Positions 44,806 to 50,646 of a DNA stretch of 64,000 nt are shown here, in pieces. The notes beneath the pieces are model-generated. The model was not told where the DNA came from. It worked only from the letters and a program-made list of their open reading frames with translations, and did not search any database. The stretch is taken from the NCBI RefSeq assembly GCF_013167455.1, contig NZ_CP038328.1; one strand, 5' to 3'. How positions within the stretch are numbered: position 1 is the stretch's first letter; every line of letters starts with the position of its first letter. Source of the DNA: Escherichia coli O157:H7. GTDB lineage: Bacteria; Pseudomonadota; Gammaproteobacteria; Enterobacterales; Enterobacteriaceae. Position numbers and translations under genes: made by a program.

Positions 44806-46383
44806 ATGACGGAAAACATTCATAAGCATCGCATCCTCATTCTGGACTTCGGTTCTCAGTACACTCAACTGGTTGCGCGCCGCGTGCGTGAGCTGGGTGT
44901 TTACTGCGAACTGTGGGCATGGGATGTGACAGAAGCACAAATTCGTGACTTCAATCCAAGCGGCATTATTCTTTCCGGCGGCCCGGAAAGTACTACTGAA
45001 GAAAACAGCCCGCGTGCGCCGCAGTATGTCTTTGAAGCAGGCGTACCGGTATTCGGCGTTTGCTATGGCATGCAGACCATGGCAATGCAGTTGGGCGGTC
45101 ACGTTGAAGCCTCTAACGAACGTGAATTTGGCTACGCGCAGGTTGAAGTCGTAAACGACAGCGCACTGGTTCGCGGTATCGAAGATGCGCTGACCGCAGA
45201 CGGTAAACCGCTGCTCGATGTCTGGATGAGCCACGGCGATAAAGTTACCGCTATCCCGTCCGACTTCGTCACCGTAGCCAGCACCGAAAGCTGCCCGTTT
45301 GCCATTATGGCTAACGAAGAAAAACGCTTCTATGGCGTACAGTTCCACCCGGAAGTGACTCACACCCGCCAGGGTATGCGCATGCTGGAGCGTTTTGTGC
45401 GTGATATCTGCCAGTGTGAAGCCCTGTGGACGCCAGCGAAAATTATCGACGATGCTGTAGCTCGCATCCGCGAGCAGGTAGGCGACGATAAAGTCATCCT
45501 CGGCCTCTCTGGTGGTGTGGATTCCTCCGTAACCGCAATGCTGCTGCACCGCGCTATCGGTAAAAACCTGACTTGCGTATTCGTCGACAACGGCCTGCTG
45601 CGTCTCAACGAAGCAGAGCAGGTTCTGGATATGTTTGGCGATCACTTTGGTCTTAACATTGTTCACGTACCGGCAGAAGATCGCTTCCTGTCAGCGCTGG
45701 CTGGCGAAAACGATCCGGAAGCAAAACGTAAAATCATCGGTCGCGTTTTCGTTGAAGTATTCGATGAAGAAGCGCTGAAACTGGAAGACGTGAAGTGGCT
45801 GGCGCAGGGCACCATCTACCCTGACGTTATCGAATCTGCGGCGTCTGCAACCGGTAAAGCACACGTCATCAAATCTCACCACAACGTGGGCGGCCTGCCG
45901 AAAGAGATGAAGATGGGCCTGGTTGAACCGCTGAAAGAGCTGTTCAAAGACGAAGTGCGTAAGATTGGTCTGGAGCTGGGCCTGCCGTACGACATGCTGT
46001 ACCGTCACCCGTTCCCGGGACCAGGCCTTGGCGTTCGTGTTCTGGGTGAAGTGAAGAAAGAGTACTGTGACCTGCTGCGCCGTGCTGACGCCATCTTCAT
46101 TGAAGAACTGCGTAAAGCGGACCTGTACGACAAAGTCAGCCAGGCGTTCACCGTCTTCCTGCCAGTACGTTCCGTTGGCGTAATGGGCGATGGTCGTAAG
46201 TATGACTGGGTTGTCTCTCTGCGTGCTGTCGAAACCATCGACTTTATGACCGCACACTGGGCGCATCTGCCGTACGATTTCCTCGGTCGCGTTTCCAACC
46301 GCATTATCAATGAAGTGAACGGTATTTCCCGCGTGGTGTATGACATCAGCGGCAAGCCACCAGCTACCATTGAGTGGGAATGA
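44806..46383 (+). CDS. guaA: GMP synthase (glutamine-hydrolysing)
   Basis: 525 aa ORF; GATase Cys (GVCYGMQ), PP-loop SGGVDSS. Confidence 0.95.
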
Positions 46384-46410
46384 TTTGACCCTGCACTATG
46401 AATGAACAAA

Positions 46411-46438
46411 ACCCTCTGTTACTACAGAGGGTTTTTTA
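46411..46438. terminator. Rho-independent terminator after guaA
   Basis: accctctgttactacagagggtttttt. Confidence 0.75.
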
Positions 46439-46475
46439 TCTTCAAGAATTATAGGCTTGAAGTTACTAACATCGA

Positions 46476-47015
46476 TTAATTAAACCAGCTGTCCGATTTA
46501 TTCTCTTCTGCTTTGCCCACGCTTTTCATCAGATCGCGACCGCCTTCAGTCATATTTCTGTTGGCGTCAGCTTCAGATTGCACGACATCAGTTTGCGCGG
46601 CTTTGTGCTTCAGCTCCTGATCGATAAATTCGTTTTCTCGCTTAACGCGGGCTTCTTCTTTTGCCAGCGCCAGTTTTTGTTTCTGAATCTCTAAGCTGCG
46701 TAGCTCATCTTCATAACTTTGATCGCGTTTTTTGTCCGCAGTGGCTTCGGCGTCCAGTTTATCCTGACGAGCTTTCTTATTTGCCGCTGCCGTTGCCGCT
46801 CTTTTGTTAGCGGCAGCCTGGGCATTTGCGCGACGTTGCTTCTCTTGCTGGATTTCCCTGTTGCGCTCCGCGACCCATTCGTCATGCTGCCTTTGCTCTT
46901 CATTTTTACCTTGCTGTTCCGCTTCTGCGACAGCAGAGAGTTGATCCTGCAATGATGAGGCGATAGCCGGATAGCTTAAGGAGGCTAAGATGGCGCAAAG
47001 AAAAACTTTCTTCAT
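46476..47015 (-). CDS. yfgI: Secreted low-complexity charged (coiled-coil) protein YfgI
   Basis: 179 aa ORF; signal peptide MKKVFLCAILASLSYPAIASS, then a Gln/Glu/Lys/Ala-rich sequence. Confidence 0.85.
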   Translation of the reverse strand: MKKVFLCAILASLSYPAIASSLQDQLSAVAEAEQQGKNEEQRQHDEWVAERNREIQQEKQRRANAQAAANKRAATAAANKKARQDKLDAEATADKKRDQSYEDELRSLEIQKQKLALAKEEARVKRENEFIDQELKHKAAQTDVVQSEADANRNMTEGGRDLMKSVGKAEENKSDSWFN

Positions 47016-47030
47016 GACTCCTCCTGATTA

Positions 47031-47549
47031 TTAGCTCTTTTCAGGACATTTGGTATTTGGCTGAATACGCGTTTCGTTATACGTCGTGGTAATAACAACG
47101 GCTAAACCTGTCGTAAACTGGCACTCTTTACCCACCTGAGTAGAGGTATACACTTTGGTGCCTTCCTTATACGTTAAAGAAACACCTTCCACTAAGGTTT
47201 TATCATTCATCATAGAACCCGCTGCCGCGCCTACAGCTCCGCCGCCAACTGCACCTGCCGTCGTTCCGGAATTGCTGCCAGACCCGACGTTGTGGCCGAT
47301 AACACCGCCAGCGACTGCGCCAATAAGCGCGCCGAAGGCTTGTGCGTTCCGTTTATTTTGGGAGTTGTCTACGGCAACTTTTGCGGGAAGAATGGAAATA
47401 ATATTAACGGTTTTAGTTTCTTGTTTGGTATTCAGTTGATCGGTTTGATAAACATCGGCGGCATGATCGTCAGCATTTGACTGGCATCCTGCCAGAGTGA
47501 ATGACGCTAACATTGCCACAGGCAGAAGACATTTTTTAAATTTCATCAC
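47031..47549 (-). CDS. yfgH: Glycine-zipper outer-membrane lipoprotein YfgH
   Basis: 172 aa ORF; lipobox FTLAGCQS; Gly/Ala-rich segment GALIGAVAGGVIGHNVGSG. Confidence 0.85.
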   Translation of the reverse strand: MMKFKKCLLPVAMLASFTLAGCQSNADDHAADVYQTDQLNTKQETKTVNIISILPAKVAVDNSQNKRNAQAFGALIGAVAGGVIGHNVGSGSNSGTTAGAVGGGAVGAAAGSMMNDKTLVEGVSLTYKEGTKVYTSTQVGKECQFTTGLAVVITTTYNETRIQPNTKCPEKS

Positions 47550-47859
47550 TATTCCTTGTTATACACATTACGAAAAATAAGACATTTAAGATCATCAAAA
47601 GAGGAAAGTAAATGTATTGCGTATAAAGGGATGGATTAAATTTATTAAAATTCACGCCGGGAATAATTTATAAAAATACATCATTACAACATATATATTA
47701 ATTTTATATTTATTTCGCAGCCAAACAGGATAAACATCAGTCGGGACAAAGACGTATAATTTAAGATGAAAGAATATCTGCCGCTTTGATAATTCCAAAG
47801 AGCAAAAGCATCCGACAGCGAAGCGCCGTTATGTTCTGTGAAAGTGGAGAAGGTAACCG

Positions 47860-48051
47860 CTAACGTTGTACCGGTGATTCGACGGAGAGTGTGGATTGCT
47901 GAGCTTCTTTTTTGCTCTGATGGTGCTGCCAGGCACCGACGGACGAGTAGATAAAACGGCCAAAGAAGAAGATAAAGCTGATGAGCAGTACGATACGGGT
48001 CATGCGACTGTTAAATCGGTGTCGTTTTCGCATACTGGTTGCCTGACTCAC
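47860..48051 (-). CDS. yfgG: Small membrane protein YfgG
   Basis: 63 aa ORF with one hydrophobic helix (IVLLISFIFFFGRFIY). Confidence 0.7.
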   Translation of the reverse strand: MSQATSMRKRHRFNSRMTRIVLLISFIFFFGRFIYSSVGAWQHHQSKKEAQQSTLSVESPVQR

Positions 48052-48261
48052 AAAAGGTTCCTTGAAGTATGTCCCACGCCGTGGACGGTACTTACATTAA
48101 GGCACAACAGGACAAAATGGTCAATTCTTCGTTATGTAAAAAATCGTCAGTGGATACATATTTTAATGTTATGGAAGTTAATTTAATTATTTACAATGAT
48201 GATGTAATAATGATGAATTAACATGATAAACGTAATAATTCATTAATCAGGGTTATTTTGT

Positions 48262-48275
48262 TTGATATATATCAA
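48262..48275 (+). promoter_or_regulatory. Consensus FNR box upstream of pdeF
   Basis: TTGATatatATCAA is an exact match to TTGAT-N4-ATCAA, in the AT-rich divergent region between yfgG and pdeF. Confidence 0.65.
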
Positions 48276-48402
48276 TTGGAACTTTCATATGACACTTAGA
48301 ATCAATGCTCTCTATAGTGATGAATAATCATCATTCGAAGTCAGGTGGGATGCCTGTCTGAATACACCTCCTTCAGGATGTGGGGGATTCTGCTGAGCAT
48401 CT

Positions 48403-50646
48403 ATGAAACTGAATGCAACTTATATAAAAATACGTGATAAATGGTGGGGGCTTCCGCTGTTCCTGCCTTCTTTAATCTTGCCCATTTTCGCCCACATTAA
48501 TACTTTCGCGCATATTTCTTCCGGTGAGGTTTTTCTCTTTTATCTGCCTCTGGCACTGATGATCAGCATGATGATGTTTTTCAGCTGGGCGGCATTGCCA
48601 GGGATCGCCTTAGGGATTTTTGTCCGCAAATATGCAGAGCTGGGTTTTTACGAAACGCTCTCATTAACGGCTAATTTTATTATCATTATCATTCTCTGTT
48701 GGGGCGGTTACAGGGTCTTTACTCCCCGGCGTAACAACGTTTCACATGGTGATACCCGTTTAATTTCCCAGCGTATATTCTGGCAGATTGTGTTTCCTGC
48801 AACGCTGTTTCTGATACTTTTCCAGTTTGCTGCATTTGTAGGATTACTGGCGAGCAGAGAAAATCTGGTTGGCGTCATGCCTTTTAATCTCGGGACCTTA
48901 ATCAATTATCAGGCCTTACTGGTGGGCAATCTGATTGGTGTCCCGCTGTGCTACTTCATCATTCGGGTAGTGCGAAATCCGTTTTATTTACGTAGTTATT
49001 ATTCGCAATTAAAACAGCAGGTTGATGTCAAAGTCACCAAAAAAGAGTTCGCACTCTGGCTGCTGGCATTAGGTGCTTTACTGTTGCTGTTATGCATGCC
49101 GTTAAATGAAAAAAGCACAATTTTTAGCACCAATTATACCTTGTCATTATTGCTGCCCCTGATGATGTGGGGAGCGATGCGCTATGGTTATAAGCTGATT
49201 TCGCTGCTCTGGGCGGTCGTGTTGATGATCAGCATCCACAGCTATCAAAATTACATTCCCATTTATCCTGGCTATACCACGCAGCTGACCATAACCTCCT
49301 CCAGTTATCTGGTATTCTCTTTTATTGTCAATTATATGGCTGTACTGGCAACCCGTCAGAGAACGGTAGTCAGACGCATTCAGCGCCTTGCGTATGTGGA
49401 CCCGGTGGTTCATCTGCCAAATGTTCGCGCCCTGAATCGCGCGTTGCGTGATGCCCCCTGGTCTGCGCTTTGTTATTTACGCATCCCTGGCATGGAAATG
49501 CTGGTTAAAAACTATGGCATCATGCTGCGGATTCAATACAAGCAAAAACTTTCTCACTGGCTGTCACCCTTGCTGGAACCAGGTGAAGATGTTTATCAGC
49601 TTTCGGGTAACGATCTCGCGCTGCGACTGAATACAGAATCGCACCAGGAGCGCATTACCGCACTGGATAGCCATCTCAAGCAATTTCGTTTCTTTTGGGA
49701 TGGCATGCCGATGCAACCGCAGATTGGCGTCAGTTACTGCTATGTGCGCTCGCCAGTGAATCATATCTACCTGCTGCTGGGAGAGCTAAATACGGTCGCC
49801 GAACTTTCCATCGTGACCAACGCCCCGGAAAATATGCAGCGTCGCGGGGCAATGTATTTGCAACGCGAATTGAAAGATAAAGTCGCGATGATGAATCGAC
49901 TACAGCAGGCGCTGGAACACAACCATTTTTTCCTGATGGCCCAGCCGATTACCGGTATGCGTGGTGATGTTTACCATGAAATTCTTCTGCGCATGAAAGG
50001 TGAGAATGATGAACTAATCGGCCCCGATAGCTTCTTGCCGGTCGCGCACGAATTTGGTTTATCGTCGAGTATCGACATGTGGGTCATTGAGCATACGCTG
50101 CAATTTATGGCTGAAAACAGAGCGAAGATGCCCGCTCACCGTTTTGCTATTAATCTGTCTCCAACCTCGGTATGTCAGGCTCGTTTTCCTGTTGAAGTCA
50201 GTCAGTTGCTGGATAAATATCAGATTGAAGCGTGGCAACTTATTTTTGAAGTCACCGAAAGTAATGCTCTGACCAATGTTAAGCAGGCGCAAATCACCTT
50301 GCAGCATCTTCAGGAATTAGGCTGCCAGATTGCGATTGATGATTTCGGCACCGGCTACGCCAGCTATGCGCGGCTTAAAAATGTGAATGCCGATCTGCTT
50401 AAAATTGACGGCAGTTTTATCCGCAATATTGTGTCAAATAGTCTGGATTATCAGATAGTGGCATCGATTTGCCACCTGGCGCGAATGAAGAAAATGCGGG
50501 TAGTGGCAGAGTACGTTGAAAACGAAGAGATCCGCGAGGCGGTGCTCTCTTTGGGGATCGATTATATGCAGGGTTATCTTATTGGTAAGCCGCAACCGTT
50601 AATTGATACGCTGAATGAAATCGAACCCATTCGCGAAAGTGCCTGA
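48403..50646 (+). CDS. pdeF: Membrane-bound c-di-GMP phosphodiesterase (MASE1, degenerate GGDEF, EAL)
   Basis: 747 aa ORF; multi-pass N-terminal half; EAL-domain signature in C-terminal half. Confidence 0.9.
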   Translation: MKLNATYIKIRDKWWGLPLFLPSLILPIFAHINTFAHISSGEVFLFYLPLALMISMMMFFSWAALPGIALGIFVRKYAELGFYETLSLTANFIIIIILCWGGYRVFTPRRNNVSHGDTRLISQRIFWQIVFPATLFLILFQFAAFVGLLASRENLVGVMPFNLGTLINYQALLVGNLIGVPLCYFIIRVVRNPFYLRSYYSQLKQQVDVKVTKKEFALWLLALGALLLLLCMPLNEKSTIFSTNYTLSLLLPLMMWGAMRYGYKLISLLWAVVLMISIHSYQNYIPIYPGYTTQLTITSSSYLVFSFIVNYMAVLATRQRTVVRRIQRLAYVDPVVHLPNVRALNRALRDAPWSALCYLRIPGMEMLVKNYGIMLRIQYKQKLSHWLSPLLEPGEDVYQLSGNDLALRLNTESHQERITALDSHLKQFRFFWDGMPMQPQIGVSYCYVRSPVNHIYLLLGELNTVAELSIVTNAPENMQRRGAMYLQRELKDKVAMMNRLQQALEHNHFFLMAQPITGMRGDVYHEILLRMKGENDELIGPDSFLPVAHEFGLSSSIDMWVIEHTLQFMAENRAKMPAHRFAINLSPTSVCQARFPVEVSQLLDKYQIEAWQLIFEVTESNALTNVKQAQITLQHLQELGCQIAIDDFGTGYASYARLKNVNADLLKIDGSFIRNIVSNSLDYQIVASICHLARMKKMRVVAEYVENEEIREAVLSLGIDYMQGYLIGKPQPLIDTLNEIEPIRESA

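Follow-up and report, generated by a model that had tools for sequence, protein, structure and literature searches.

The genes yfgH and yfgI of Escherichia coli O157:H7 form a tightly conserved two-gene unit. The evidence favours, with moderate confidence, the view that this unit is an operon encoding a two-component variant of the SlyB-type outer-membrane-stabilising system, and that yfgG is an independent neighbour. The window analysed was a stretch of 64,000 nt from contig NZ_CP038328.1. An earlier note on this DNA had placed three small co-oriented genes, yfgI, yfgH and yfgG, between guaA and pdeF and described all of them as functionally uncharacterised. The three ORFs were found on the minus strand at 46476-48051, flanked by guaA and pdeF, with a perfect FNR box in the divergent region between yfgG and pdeF, and the gene names agreed with the RefSeq annotation (yfgI, yfgH, yfgG). 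The description as uncharacterised was outdated, as published work connects YfgH with outer-membrane integrity, yfgG with nickel and cobalt tolerance, and yfgI with nalidixic acid sensitivity. The three genes are already known and annotated, and they are not one system.

The coordinates of the features are given in Table 1. For yfgH, the ATG is more likely to be the true start than the GTG, because the ATG is conserved, whereas Citrobacter has GTA in place of the GTG. The region matched E. coli O157:H7 chromosomes at 100% identity, and at least 80% of the query was covered in 5,400 of 5,426 complete E. coli genomes. A scan of metagenome contigs was dominated by E. coli from the gut and its near relatives and added few new lineages. 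Almost all that a scan of viral contigs returned were predicted E. coli prophages with the chromosomal yfgI included at the edge.

Table 1. Features of the yfgI-yfgH-yfgG region, in window positions.
Feature	Position	Strand	Remarks
Hairpin, palindromic and G+C-rich, between convergent guaA and yfgI	46408-46435	.	Terminator scan (+ strand); minus-strand T-run read from sequence
yfgI CDS, secreted DUF5384 protein	46476-47015	-	179 aa; ORF call and Pfam
yfgH-yfgI intercistronic spacer, 15 nt	47016-47030	-	Strong Shine-Dalgarno AGGAGG at 47020-47025, 4 nt before yfgI ATG
yfgH CDS, outer-membrane lipoprotein, SlyB paralogue	47031-47546	-	ATG start 47546, 171 aa; RefSeq start GTG 47549 (ORF 47031-47549, 172 aa)
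Candidate yfgHI promoter	47584-47612	-	TTTACT 47612-47607, 17 nt, TTAAAT 47589-47584; inferred from conservation
Weak terminator-like hairpin, 32 nt 3' of yfgG stop	47813-47828	-	Consensus match only; count not above shuffled expectation
yfgG CDS, DUF2633	47860-48051	-	63 aa; neighbour outside the yfgHI unit
Perfect FNR consensus box TTGATATATATCAA, yfgG/pdeF divergent region	48262-48275	.	Found once in the 64 kb; chance expectation 0.09

The pairing of yfgH and yfgI was investigated by comparative analysis. Among the YfgI matches listed, all 16 genome loci carried yfgH directly upstream, and 7 of 7 distant metagenomic homologues had the same arrangement. Paired loci included Pseudomonas and Acetobacter, with about 40% identity and without guaA, pdeF or yfgG nearby. 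The two genes were adjacent in 182 of 190 loci, which were mostly near-identical E. coli and represent about 24 independent lineages (<80% YfgI identity) rather than 182. The other eight comprised five at contig edges and three that were frameshifted or at edges; none of the 190 loci had room upstream and yet lacked yfgH. The reverse test, which set out from YfgH homologues of Xenorhabdus, Serratia and Pantoea, showed a DUF5384 gene downstream in all three. The two families were of similar size (312 and 260 clusters). These comparative data strongly supported the earlier note in grouping the lipoprotein with the helical periplasmic protein.

The spacer between the two genes is too short to house a promoter or a terminator. 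An identical 15-nt gap was present in 149 loci, and the gaps ranged overall from -68 to +15 nt. A promoter-like element, (G)TTTACTTT, was conserved upstream of yfgH only, and it was kept at a similar distance in Citrobacter, other enterobacteria and phage P7. A simple sigma-70 scan called no minus-strand promoter upstream of yfgH or yfgG, and inspection by eye of the sequence upstream of yfgH for sigma-E, PhoP-box and Rcs-box elements gave partial resemblances only. The hairpin between guaA and yfgI is probably a bidirectional terminator closing the yfgHI transcript. The Rfam search of the region yielded one chance lncRNA match (E = 0.68) and nothing real. The literature treats the pair as an operon, yfgHI or srgIL; a genomic SELEX study tabulates yfgHI as a separate operon, and a srgIL reporter was under SdiA regulation in S. 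Typhi.

YfgH has a lipobox, LAG/C, followed at +2 by Q, an outer-membrane sorting residue (FTLAG/CQ), and the lipobox position was Cys in all 35 representative homologues of the alignment. Residues 73-114 matched the Pfam family Gly-zipper 2TM (PF05433) with 34.7 bits against a gathering cut-off of 24.2. Besides the lipobox Cys, cysteines are located at about residues 143 and 168, so that the lipoprotein with a glycine-zipper segment and two C-terminal Cys read in the earlier note was confirmed. Of 101 full-length members of the family, 100 carry the C-terminal Cys motif, a cysteine pair with (S/T)R(I/V)QxN, which is missing from the aligned SlyB sequence (7ojf). The phmmer alignment of YfgH with SlyB 7ojf spans the whole protein (residues 8-163 of YfgH and 6-154 of SlyB; E = 1e-10). 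A periplasmic beta domain is predicted at the C-terminal side of the glycine-zipper hairpin. The Foldseek search gave 7ojf_A (SlyB) as the sole significant PDB match (E = 5e-6, probability 1.00), with a query taken from a fused-chain AlphaFold2 model in which the glycine-zipper part had low pLDDT. From its sequence and modelled structure, YfgH is a full-length SlyB homologue with a predicted SlyB fold and a family-specific C-terminal cysteine pair.

SlyB is a PhoPQ-regulated outer-membrane lipoprotein of E. coli with known cryo-EM structures (7OJF/7OJG). It has the lipobox, glycine-zipper hairpin, periplasmic beta domain and fold in common with YfgH, and both guard the outer membrane, together with the proteins it contains, against EDTA or LPS stress. 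In contrast to the aligned SlyB sequence, YfgH has a short C-terminal tail and carries the conserved Cys pair and the (S/T)R(I/V)QxN motif; it is also horizontally mobile, and a DUF5384 gene always comes next after its own gene in the loci examined. Suppressors are a further difference, as those of YfgH lie in clsA and not in the Mla pathway. Stress-induced rings around nanodomains of lipid and outer-membrane proteins, a trait of the SlyB type, are for YfgH a matter of modelling only: the rings in the preprint discussed below are AF3 models, for which the authors say that biochemical proof is missing.

The published link between YfgH and outer-membrane integrity dates from 2011, and in a 2025 preprint the protein is presented as a SlyB-like outer-membrane stabiliser. 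Its outer-membrane localisation was shown by fractionation, and its detection in the proteome has also been published. YfgH is required under SDS/EDTA and on depletion of lptD or bamA, and it is induced by outer-membrane damage. BamA, LptD and porins co-purify with YfgH, and more protein co-purifies under EDTA. The yfgH deletion phenotype is suppressed by loss of the cardiolipin synthase ClsA. The localisation, stress requirement and induction bear out the envelope role that had been proposed for the lipoprotein. Plasmid-borne yfgH alone complements the yfgH deletion and rescues the knock-downs; the chromosomal yfgI is presumably still there in these strains. The preprint makes no mention of yfgI. 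Its text reports YfgH, Slp and SlyB, and not YfgI, from mass spectrometry of a band of about 17 kDa, the preparation being detergent-solubilised membranes and the list being limited to the top membrane proteins.

YfgI matched DUF5384 (PF17358) in Pfam over residues 33-178 with E = 4e-62 and 209 bits against a cut-off of 25. It has a Sec signal peptide of residues 1-19 with cleavage at AIA/SS, and a cleavable Sec signal peptide was found in every family member examined. Mature YfgI contains 16% A, 13% E, 11% Q and 11% K, and 39% of its residues are charged. The N-terminal motif SLQDQLSAVAxAEQQG and the C-terminal 85 residues are conserved, and the protein ends in SWFN. Between the two ends, the conservation and hydrophobicity profiles showed a variable spacer of about 70 residues devoid of hydrophobic positions. 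AlphaFold2 predicted one continuous helix of residues 19-175 (about 157 residues, pLDDT 89), which would be about 23 nm long if straight. In some homologues, the C-terminal WF motif is followed directly by a membrane-spanning anchor whose tail is basic. YfgI has been detected by proteomics, and survival of the yfgI deletion was reported as 7% on nalidixic acid compared with 98% on kasugamycin and 74% on ampicillin.

The signal peptide and the charged, Q/E/K/A-rich composition read in the earlier note were upheld; the predicted coiled coil was weakly supported, as the AlphaFold2 model is a single helix without a hydrophobic core in residues 30-100, where the alignment profile showed no conserved hydrophobic position. 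A canonical Lpp-like coiled coil was rejected, since the heptad signal was weak and no continuous a/d pattern was seen. The C-terminal half has a sparse, irregular hydrophobic pattern with periodicities of 2.25 and 7-8 residues. A typical ER/K single alpha-helix was also rejected, as the density of i/i+4 salt bridges was low (0.04-0.06). Neither profile search nor Foldseek found a solved relative of YfgI in the PDB, which is expected for a single helix. The sole match outside DUF families was TolA (E = 0.28), compositional and non-significant. A literature search on DUF5384, PF17358 and upf50.0 returned nothing relevant.

In the preferred reading, YfgI would be the dedicated periplasmic partner of YfgH, with a putative physical contact between the two proteins. 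One conserved end of YfgI would bind YfgH on its periplasmic side, possibly at the Cys-stapled tail that is absent from SlyB, and the other end, with the C-terminal WF motif, would sit at a membrane interface. YfgI would then tether, brace or organise YfgH assemblies beneath the outer membrane. A fused AlphaFold2 run (mature YfgH, 80-residue GS linker and mature YfgI; 27-row paired alignment) gave a pTM of 0.36 and a mean pLDDT of 67 and speaks neither for nor against such a contact. Hydrophobic quinolones are generally known to act better on cells with a leaky outer membrane. The nalidixic acid sensitivity of the yfgI deletion probably reflects a leaky outer-membrane barrier to a hydrophobic quinolone rather than a DNA-repair defect.

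Copies of the pair were found in Gammaproteobacteria and Alphaproteobacteria, in phage P7 and related phage-plasmids, and in ColE1-type plasmids. The P7 copy is upf50.5/upf50.0, and related phages carry it likewise; the phage copies of yfgH bear "DNA methyltransferase" labels. Comparison of the loci indicates that the pair travels as a unit among chromosomes, phage-plasmids and small plasmids. It is conceivable, but unlikely, that yfgHI is a mobile-element accessory ("moron") module altering the cell surface, for example in phage or plasmid exclusion or serum resistance, as in TraT, Llp and Cor, and that the chromosomal E. coli copy has been domesticated. The genomic contexts agree with such a role. 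The P7 pair is located in the immunity region, between it and the tail operon, outside the late operons. About 200 plasmid records carry the pair, mostly IncY phage-plasmids, and it makes up much of the cargo of tiny ColE1-type plasmids (3.9-7.5 kb, with examples of 7.5 and 3.9 kb). Some copies adjoin AlpA/primase-type and integrase-bearing regions, and the yfgHI slot in Escherichia is variable and doubles as a prophage integration site. On one very small mobilisable plasmid, the pair adjoins a phosphoethanolamine transferase gene; MCR identity was rejected for its product, which is distantly CptA/EptA-like and far below all MCR cut-offs.

TraT, the outer-membrane lipoprotein for surface exclusion and serum resistance of the F plasmid (9FS5/9E2V), shares a glycine-rich membrane segment and mobile carriage with YfgH, and a weak sequence similarity adds to the case for an accessory module. 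However, the TraT match of YfgH (PF05818) was below the Pfam cut-off, at 26.5 against 31 bits, and PDB TraT chains gave E values of 0.034-0.075. No DUF5384-like partner has been described for TraT, and no exclusion phenotype is known for YfgH. The defence-system models of PADLOC gave no match, and the chromosomal gene has an outer-membrane stability phenotype and is induced by outer-membrane damage, independently of invaders. An accessory role on mobile elements and an outer-membrane-stabilising role are not mutually exclusive.

The layout of the pair is analogous to that of the two-component spanins Rz/Rz1, which are also phage-borne: in both, neighbouring genes encode an outer-membrane lipoprotein and a long helical protein of the periplasm, and some YfgI homologues are membrane-anchored as well. 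The likeness is one of layout only. YfgI has a cleaved signal peptide and no N-terminal anchor, the gene order is reversed, YfgH is a 151-residue SlyB-fold protein and not a short proline-rich lipoprotein, and the P7 pair lies in the immunity region and not in the lysis cassette. Spanin identity was rejected on the signal peptide, the SlyB fold and the P7 location.

A comparably improbable reading is that YfgI is an assembly factor or brake, holding YfgH monomers or the periplasmic domain until outer-membrane stress triggers ring formation. The strict gene pairing with translationally coupled spacing, the larger amount of protein co-purifying with YfgH under EDTA, and SlyB, which has no Cys-pair tail and needs no such partner, would be consistent with this. 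However, a 23-nm rod with a length-conserved spacer would be an odd shape for a chaperone, and YfgH over-expressed alone works.

An extension of the preferred reading, more speculative still, makes YfgI a periplasm-spanning strut. The C-terminal WF end would lie at the inner-membrane surface, held there in some homologues by their transmembrane helix, and the N-terminal motif on the YfgH assembly in the outer membrane, about 23 nm away. The pair could then be a portable tether from outer to inner membrane that links, mechanically or spatially, outer-membrane nanodomains formed under stress with the inner membrane, perhaps with cardiolipin-rich parts of it, and that is spread by phages and small plasmids as a fitness module. 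Lpp (Braun's lipoprotein) and TolA domain II are known examples of elongated periplasmic helices that set or bridge distances in the envelope; they have no homology to YfgI. Lpp forms a trimeric coiled coil of 56 residues, built around a regular hydrophobic core and held by a lipid anchor, whereas E. coli YfgI has neither an anchor nor conserved hydrophobic positions in its spacer region. A strict "ruler" role is doubtful, as the spacing of the end motifs is only moderately constrained (10th-90th percentile, 102-140 residues).

A DNA-damage-response role for YfgI, functionally unrelated to YfgH, is very improbable. It would fit the selective loss of survival on nalidixic acid and the name "nalidixic acid resistance" used in proteomics tables, but the Sec signal peptide means that YfgI is not in the cytoplasm with the DNA, the prediction came from phyletic profiling with 62% precision, S. 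Typhi tests for SdiA-dependent DNA-damage resistance were negative, and the general effect of a leaky outer membrane on quinolone action also weighs against it.

YfgG matched DUF2633 (PF11119) in Pfam with E = 3.6e-28 and 97.6 bits against a cut-off of 25. In the alignment, the basic N-terminus is invariant, and the single transmembrane segment is closely followed by an invariant W-x-HHQ, in agreement with the small single-TM protein described earlier. The gene is needed for nickel and cobalt tolerance, and this phenotype was assigned to yfgG with explicit exclusion of yfgH. A start site of yfgG itself has been mapped in the pdeF-yfgG divergent region, and the gene is tabulated outside the yfgHI operon. 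The gap between yfgG and yfgH is 310 nt long and AT-rich (27-29% GC), and the weak terminator-like hairpin of Table 1 lies within it. The linkage of the three genes was broken in both directions. In Klebsiella aerogenes and Salmonella, yfgG adjoins pdeF and the guaA-side slot is filled by other genes, without yfgHI; in Kluyvera, Pseudomonas, Acetobacter, phage P7 and plasmids, yfgHI occurs without a neighbouring yfgG. In one Enterobacteriaceae lineage, a mechanosensitive-channel-like gene is inserted between yfgG and yfgH.

A joint envelope-stress or structural role of all three genes, as the earlier note had proposed, is consistent with their co-orientation, with the export or membrane location of all three products and with their proximity in Escherichia and some Citrobacter, but is highly improbable and already largely refuted by the separate start site, the AT-rich gap, the broken synteny and the nickel phenotype of yfgG. 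Independent transcription and an unrelated phenotype, which the note had named as evidence against a cluster, were both found for yfgG, which is an unrelated neighbour and not part of the yfgHI unit.

SlyB-type lipoproteins are a recently recognised means by which Gram-negative bacteria protect a damaged outer membrane, and YfgH is under study as a second example. The YfgH work so far makes no reference to the translationally coupled gene yfgI. If YfgI is an obligate partner, present models of YfgH are incomplete, and deletion and complementation experiments on yfgH must control for yfgI. The name "nalidixic acid resistance protein" and the methyltransferase label of phage yfgH would also need correction. 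The presence of the pair on P1-like phage-plasmids and very small mobilisable plasmids suggests that outer-membrane robustness is transferable, a point relevant to how enteric bacteria tolerate detergents, chelators and possibly antibiotics.

The 46300-48450 stretch showed 100% identity to several O157:H7 chromosomes and was matched with at least 80% query coverage in 5,400 of 5,426 complete E. coli genomes. The three co-oriented genes of the earlier note lie exactly at 46476-48051, all on the minus strand and named yfgI, yfgH and yfgG in RefSeq, between guaA and pdeF, which are plus-strand genes in that annotation. The protein features that the earlier note had described were all recovered. 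YfgI carries a Sec signal (…YPAIA↓SS), and A, E, Q, K, R and D abound in its mature part (39% charged); in YfgH, LAG↓CQ forms a lipobox, and a glycine zipper and two C-terminal Cys are also present; in YfgG, a basic N-terminus precedes a single transmembrane segment. The Pfam match of YfgH was Rick_17kDa_Anti/Gly-zipper (34.7 bits; cut-off 24.2 bits). RefSeq starts yfgH at GTG 47549; the start that is conserved, and whose Shine-Dalgarno sequence is better spaced (AAGGA, 6 nt), is ATG 47546, and Citrobacter and relatives have GTA in place of the GTG.

Features of the yfg locus and YfgH-type phage entries that appear mislabelled
Feature	Coordinates	Strand	Length	Annotation or remark
yfgI	46476-47015	-	179 aa	RefSeq: DUF5384 family; Pfam DUF5384 E=4e-62
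yfgH	47031-47549	-	172 aa	RefSeq: glycine zipper 2TM domain protein
yfgG	47860-48051	-	63 aa	RefSeq: YfgG family; Pfam DUF2633 E=3.6e-28
Candidate yfgH promoter	47612-47584			suggested by conservation
P7 upf50.5	L030:4476-4997			YfgH-type phage copy
TL-2011b gp55	L031:2355-2870			YfgH-type phage copy
phrog_1277				YfgH-type PHROG entry

The spacer between yfgH and yfgI is 15 nt, with AGGAGG 4 nt before the yfgI ATG and no room for transcription signals. YfgI loci were searched in bacterial genomes with one genome per species, and a YfgH homologue was found immediately upstream on the same strand in 16 of 16 loci among the matches listed. These loci included Escherichia (one species with a second copy), Pseudocitrobacter, Citrobacter and Kluyvera, and extended to Pseudomonas and Acetobacter, where identity was about 40%. 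When 1.8 billion proteins were searched exhaustively by profile, just 277 DUF5384 cluster representatives emerged. All seven distant representatives chosen from these had directly upstream a gene for a 166-177-aa glycine-zipper lipoprotein, each a YfgH homologue by tblastn. When loci were pooled, the two genes were adjacent in 182 of 190, with gaps of -68 to +15 nt; five of the other eight lay at a contig end and three were frameshifted or edge cases. No locus among the 190 had upstream room yet lacked yfgH. The pooled loci are mostly near-identical E. coli, and the independent evidence is 24 lineages at <80% YfgI identity. From the YfgH side, DUF5384 was 9-11 nt downstream in the Xenorhabdus, Serratia and Pantoea copies (3/3), and the two families were of similar size (312 and 260 clusters at 90% identity). 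A promoter-like element about 60 nt 5' of the yfgH start, (G)TTTACTTT, 16-17 nt and TTAAAT, is shared by Escherichia, Citrobacter, other enterobacteria and phage P7. YfgH is accompanied by a dedicated exported helical protein, and both are inherited and transferred together. The obligate pairing, the YfgI architecture and the spread on phages and small plasmids appear to be undescribed before, the genes themselves being known; no mention of DUF5384, PF17358 or upf50.0, the P7 yfgI gene, was found in the searchable literature.

The earlier note had treated the three genes as one uncharacterised cluster. The yfgH-yfgI pairing stood, but yfgG did not belong to it, and published phenotypes exist for yfgH, yfgG and yfgI. 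In a sigma-S ChIP-seq study, yfgG has a listed transcription start within the pdeF-yfgG region, and a genomic SELEX table has yfgHI (the yfgH-yfgI pair) as its own operon downstream of yfgG. The yfgG-yfgH gap is 310 nt with 27-29% G+C, and a weak terminator-like hairpin lies 3' of yfgG. YfgG homologues are spread throughout Enterobacteriaceae. yfgG is also divergent beside pdeF in Klebsiella aerogenes and Salmonella enterica; in the loci examined there, yfgHI was absent from the yfgG-guaA slot, which was occupied either by genes for a LysR regulator and an MFS transporter or by those of a FecCD-type ABC transporter. One Enterobacteriaceae lineage has a mechanosensitive-channel-like gene between yfgG and yfgH, and in loci outside Escherichia and Citrobacter, yfgG, guaA and pdeF were not beside yfgHI. 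Tolerance of nickel and cobalt requires yfgG, which also suffices for it; the phenotype is conserved in Klebsiella michiganensis, and the Dub-seq authors regarded the yfgH nickel score as an artefact of fragments also carrying yfgG. Independent transcription and an unrelated phenotype, which the earlier note had named as evidence against its cluster, were found for yfgG and not for yfgH-yfgI, and a three-gene cluster is highly improbable.

The small membrane protein YfgG is inherited vertically among enterobacteria. An alignment across Enterobacteriaceae showed as invariant the basic N-terminus, the transmembrane segment and, immediately past the latter, W-x-HHQ (residues 41-45). Because of the nickel and cobalt phenotype, the periplasm-facing His pair may, speculatively, bind metal or modulate a transporter. 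A perfect FNR consensus, TTGATATATATCAA, is present at 48262-48275, in the promoter region between the divergent genes yfgG and pdeF and 128 nt upstream of the pdeF ATG. It is the only such site in the 64-kb window, agrees with the FNR control attributed to pdeF, and could in principle act on either gene. O157 RefSeq annotates a 50-aa ORF as 'hypothetical protein' at 48069-48221 on the plus strand, opposite to yfgG, with 17 nt between the two starts. At the protein level, conservation is 80-88% across other Escherichia species and about 50% in Citrobacter; the ORF may encode a genuine small protein or merely reflect conserved pdeF/yfgG regulatory DNA.

Sequence and structure searches found no solved relative of YfgI. 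AlphaFold2, with a 101-sequence alignment, predicted one uninterrupted helix at residues 19-175 (mean pLDDT 89), which would be about 23 nm long if straight. The alignments showed a short amphipathic N-terminal motif, SLQDQ(L/I)xAV; about 70 highly variable residues without any conserved hydrophobic position; a strongly conserved C-terminal 85 residues, DKxRDQxYEDxLRxLE…IDQEL…TDVIQSxADxNRN…G; and a terminal (S/G)WF. The coiled coil proposed earlier was poorly supported because the heptad signal was weak and the spacer could not form a hydrophobic core. A typical ER/K single helix was rejected, as salt-bridge density was too low. Mature lengths are fixed in enterobacterial-type lineages down to about 50% YfgI identity (YfgH 151 aa, YfgI 159-160 aa), and the spacing of the YfgI end motifs is 102-140 residues in the whole family (10th-90th percentile). 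Among E. coli strains, YfgI has 179, 177, 175, 173 or 170 aa through in-frame deletions in the Ala-rich AAANKRAATAAANKKA (46770-46810, codons about 68-82), which suggests repeat slippage and a spacer tolerant of small length changes. Four homologues have an extra C-terminal transmembrane helix and basic tail, the helix beginning at WF in one; their C-terminal end is therefore at the inner membrane. A metagenomic homologue of 409 aa (P0241), probably N-terminally truncated, has the DUF5384 C-terminal domain fused to about 270 preceding residues of another helical sequence, rich in repeats, that recalls the stalks of adhesins or alanine zippers.

Judged from alignment and model, YfgH is a true paralogue of the outer-membrane (OM) lipoprotein SlyB, more than a mere glycine-zipper protein. 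YfgH 8-163 aligned with SlyB 6-154 (E=1e-10), and the single significant PDB match of the modelled protein was SlyB 7ojf (Foldseek E=5e-6, probability 1.00). In every SlyB-family membership test run, the expected feature was present (lipobox, glycine zipper, full-length homology and fold). Unlike the aligned SlyB sequence, YfgH has two Cys bracketing (S/T)R(I/V)QxN and a short tail. This Cys motif was found in 100 of 101 full-length family members and 35 of 35 representative YfgI-partner YfgHs, and the Cys-stapled tail is a candidate partner-binding surface.

Nalidixic acid is a hydrophobic quinolone, and OM barrier defects enhance its activity. The yfgI deletion gave 7% survival on nalidixic acid and near-normal survival on ampicillin and kasugamycin, hence the database name 'nalidixic acid resistance protein'. 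The phenotype is read as an OM-permeability effect, since a leaky OM boosts this drug. That YfgI is a DNA-damage protein, as databases have it, is very unlikely, because a Sec-exported protein cannot act on DNA.

A 2011 study tied yfgH to OM integrity, with aggravating interactions with lptD, and with vancomycin-induced bulging and reduced OM-protein levels in single mutants. According to a December 2025 preprint, YfgH fractionates with the OM, and its deletion causes SDS+EDTA sensitivity and higher NPN permeability, suppressed by loss of the cardiolipin synthase ClsA. YfgH is required and induced on BamA, LptD or LpxC depletion, its over-expression rescues depletions of this type, and BamA, LptD and porins co-purify with it. 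Others have shown that YfgH stabilises the stressed OM; its action resembles that of SlyB but is genetically distinct. The O157:H7 proteome included YfgH as a detected lipoprotein, and in S. Typhi the yfgHI orthologues, srgIL, were treated as an operon whose reporter was regulated by SdiA.

On balance, YfgI probably works with YfgH in OM stabilisation. As its periplasmic partner, YfgI would bind YfgH through one conserved end and lie at a membrane surface with the other, and could tether, brace or organise YfgH assemblies. Against partnership, supplying yfgH by itself complements the deletion, in strains whose chromosomal yfgI was presumably intact. The preprint text, where yfgI is unmentioned, names YfgH, Slp and SlyB but not YfgI from mass spectrometry of a ~17 kDa band; the band came from detergent-solubilised membranes, and the top membrane proteins alone were listed. 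That YfgI is instead an assembly factor or brake is unlikely.

The pair also occurs on mobile elements. In phage P7 it is upf50.5/upf50.0, flanked by the immunity operon c4-icd-ant on one side and the tail-tube late operon on the other, and P1-like phages related to P7 also carry it. About 200 plasmid records have the pair, mostly non-mobilisable and including an IncY phage-plasmid. On a 7.5-kb ColE1-type mobilisable E. coli plasmid it adjoins a divergent phosphoethanolamine transferase (L029:2403-3944). This enzyme is CptA/EptA-like and was rejected as MCR, since it fell well short of every MCR cut-off. In Salmonella Cerro, a 3.9-kb ColE1/RNAI plasmid bears the pair and a single other sizeable cargo ORF (L197:400-1125), which by eye looks like a secreted alpha-carbonic anhydrase; besides yfgHI, these small plasmids hold other envelope or periplasm cargo. 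A TraT-like surface-modification or exclusion module of mobile elements is an improbable reading of this distribution; the YfgH match to TraT was under threshold. The pair resembles two-component spanins in layout only, without their defining features. RefSeq and PHROGs label phage YfgH-type copies 'DNA methyltransferase', which looks like a propagated annotation error because the protein is a SlyB-fold OM lipoprotein.

In Escherichia the pair sits in a variable slot that prophages also use. The guaA-yfgI intergenic region (46384-46475) is variable or serves for prophage integration. The phage TL-2011b record ends in host yfgI-yfgH-yfgG DNA, then a stretch 'similar to hypothetical protein'; yfgI is 529 nt from the contig end in most of the 80 IMG/VR prophage predictions listed; and two Escherichia species (L003/L004 5541-10338) have 0.8-4.8 kb inserted there.

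YfgI as a specific periplasm-spanning tether is ranked much lower than general cooperation with YfgH and is quite doubtful. The interest of the module would rise if the tether model were true.
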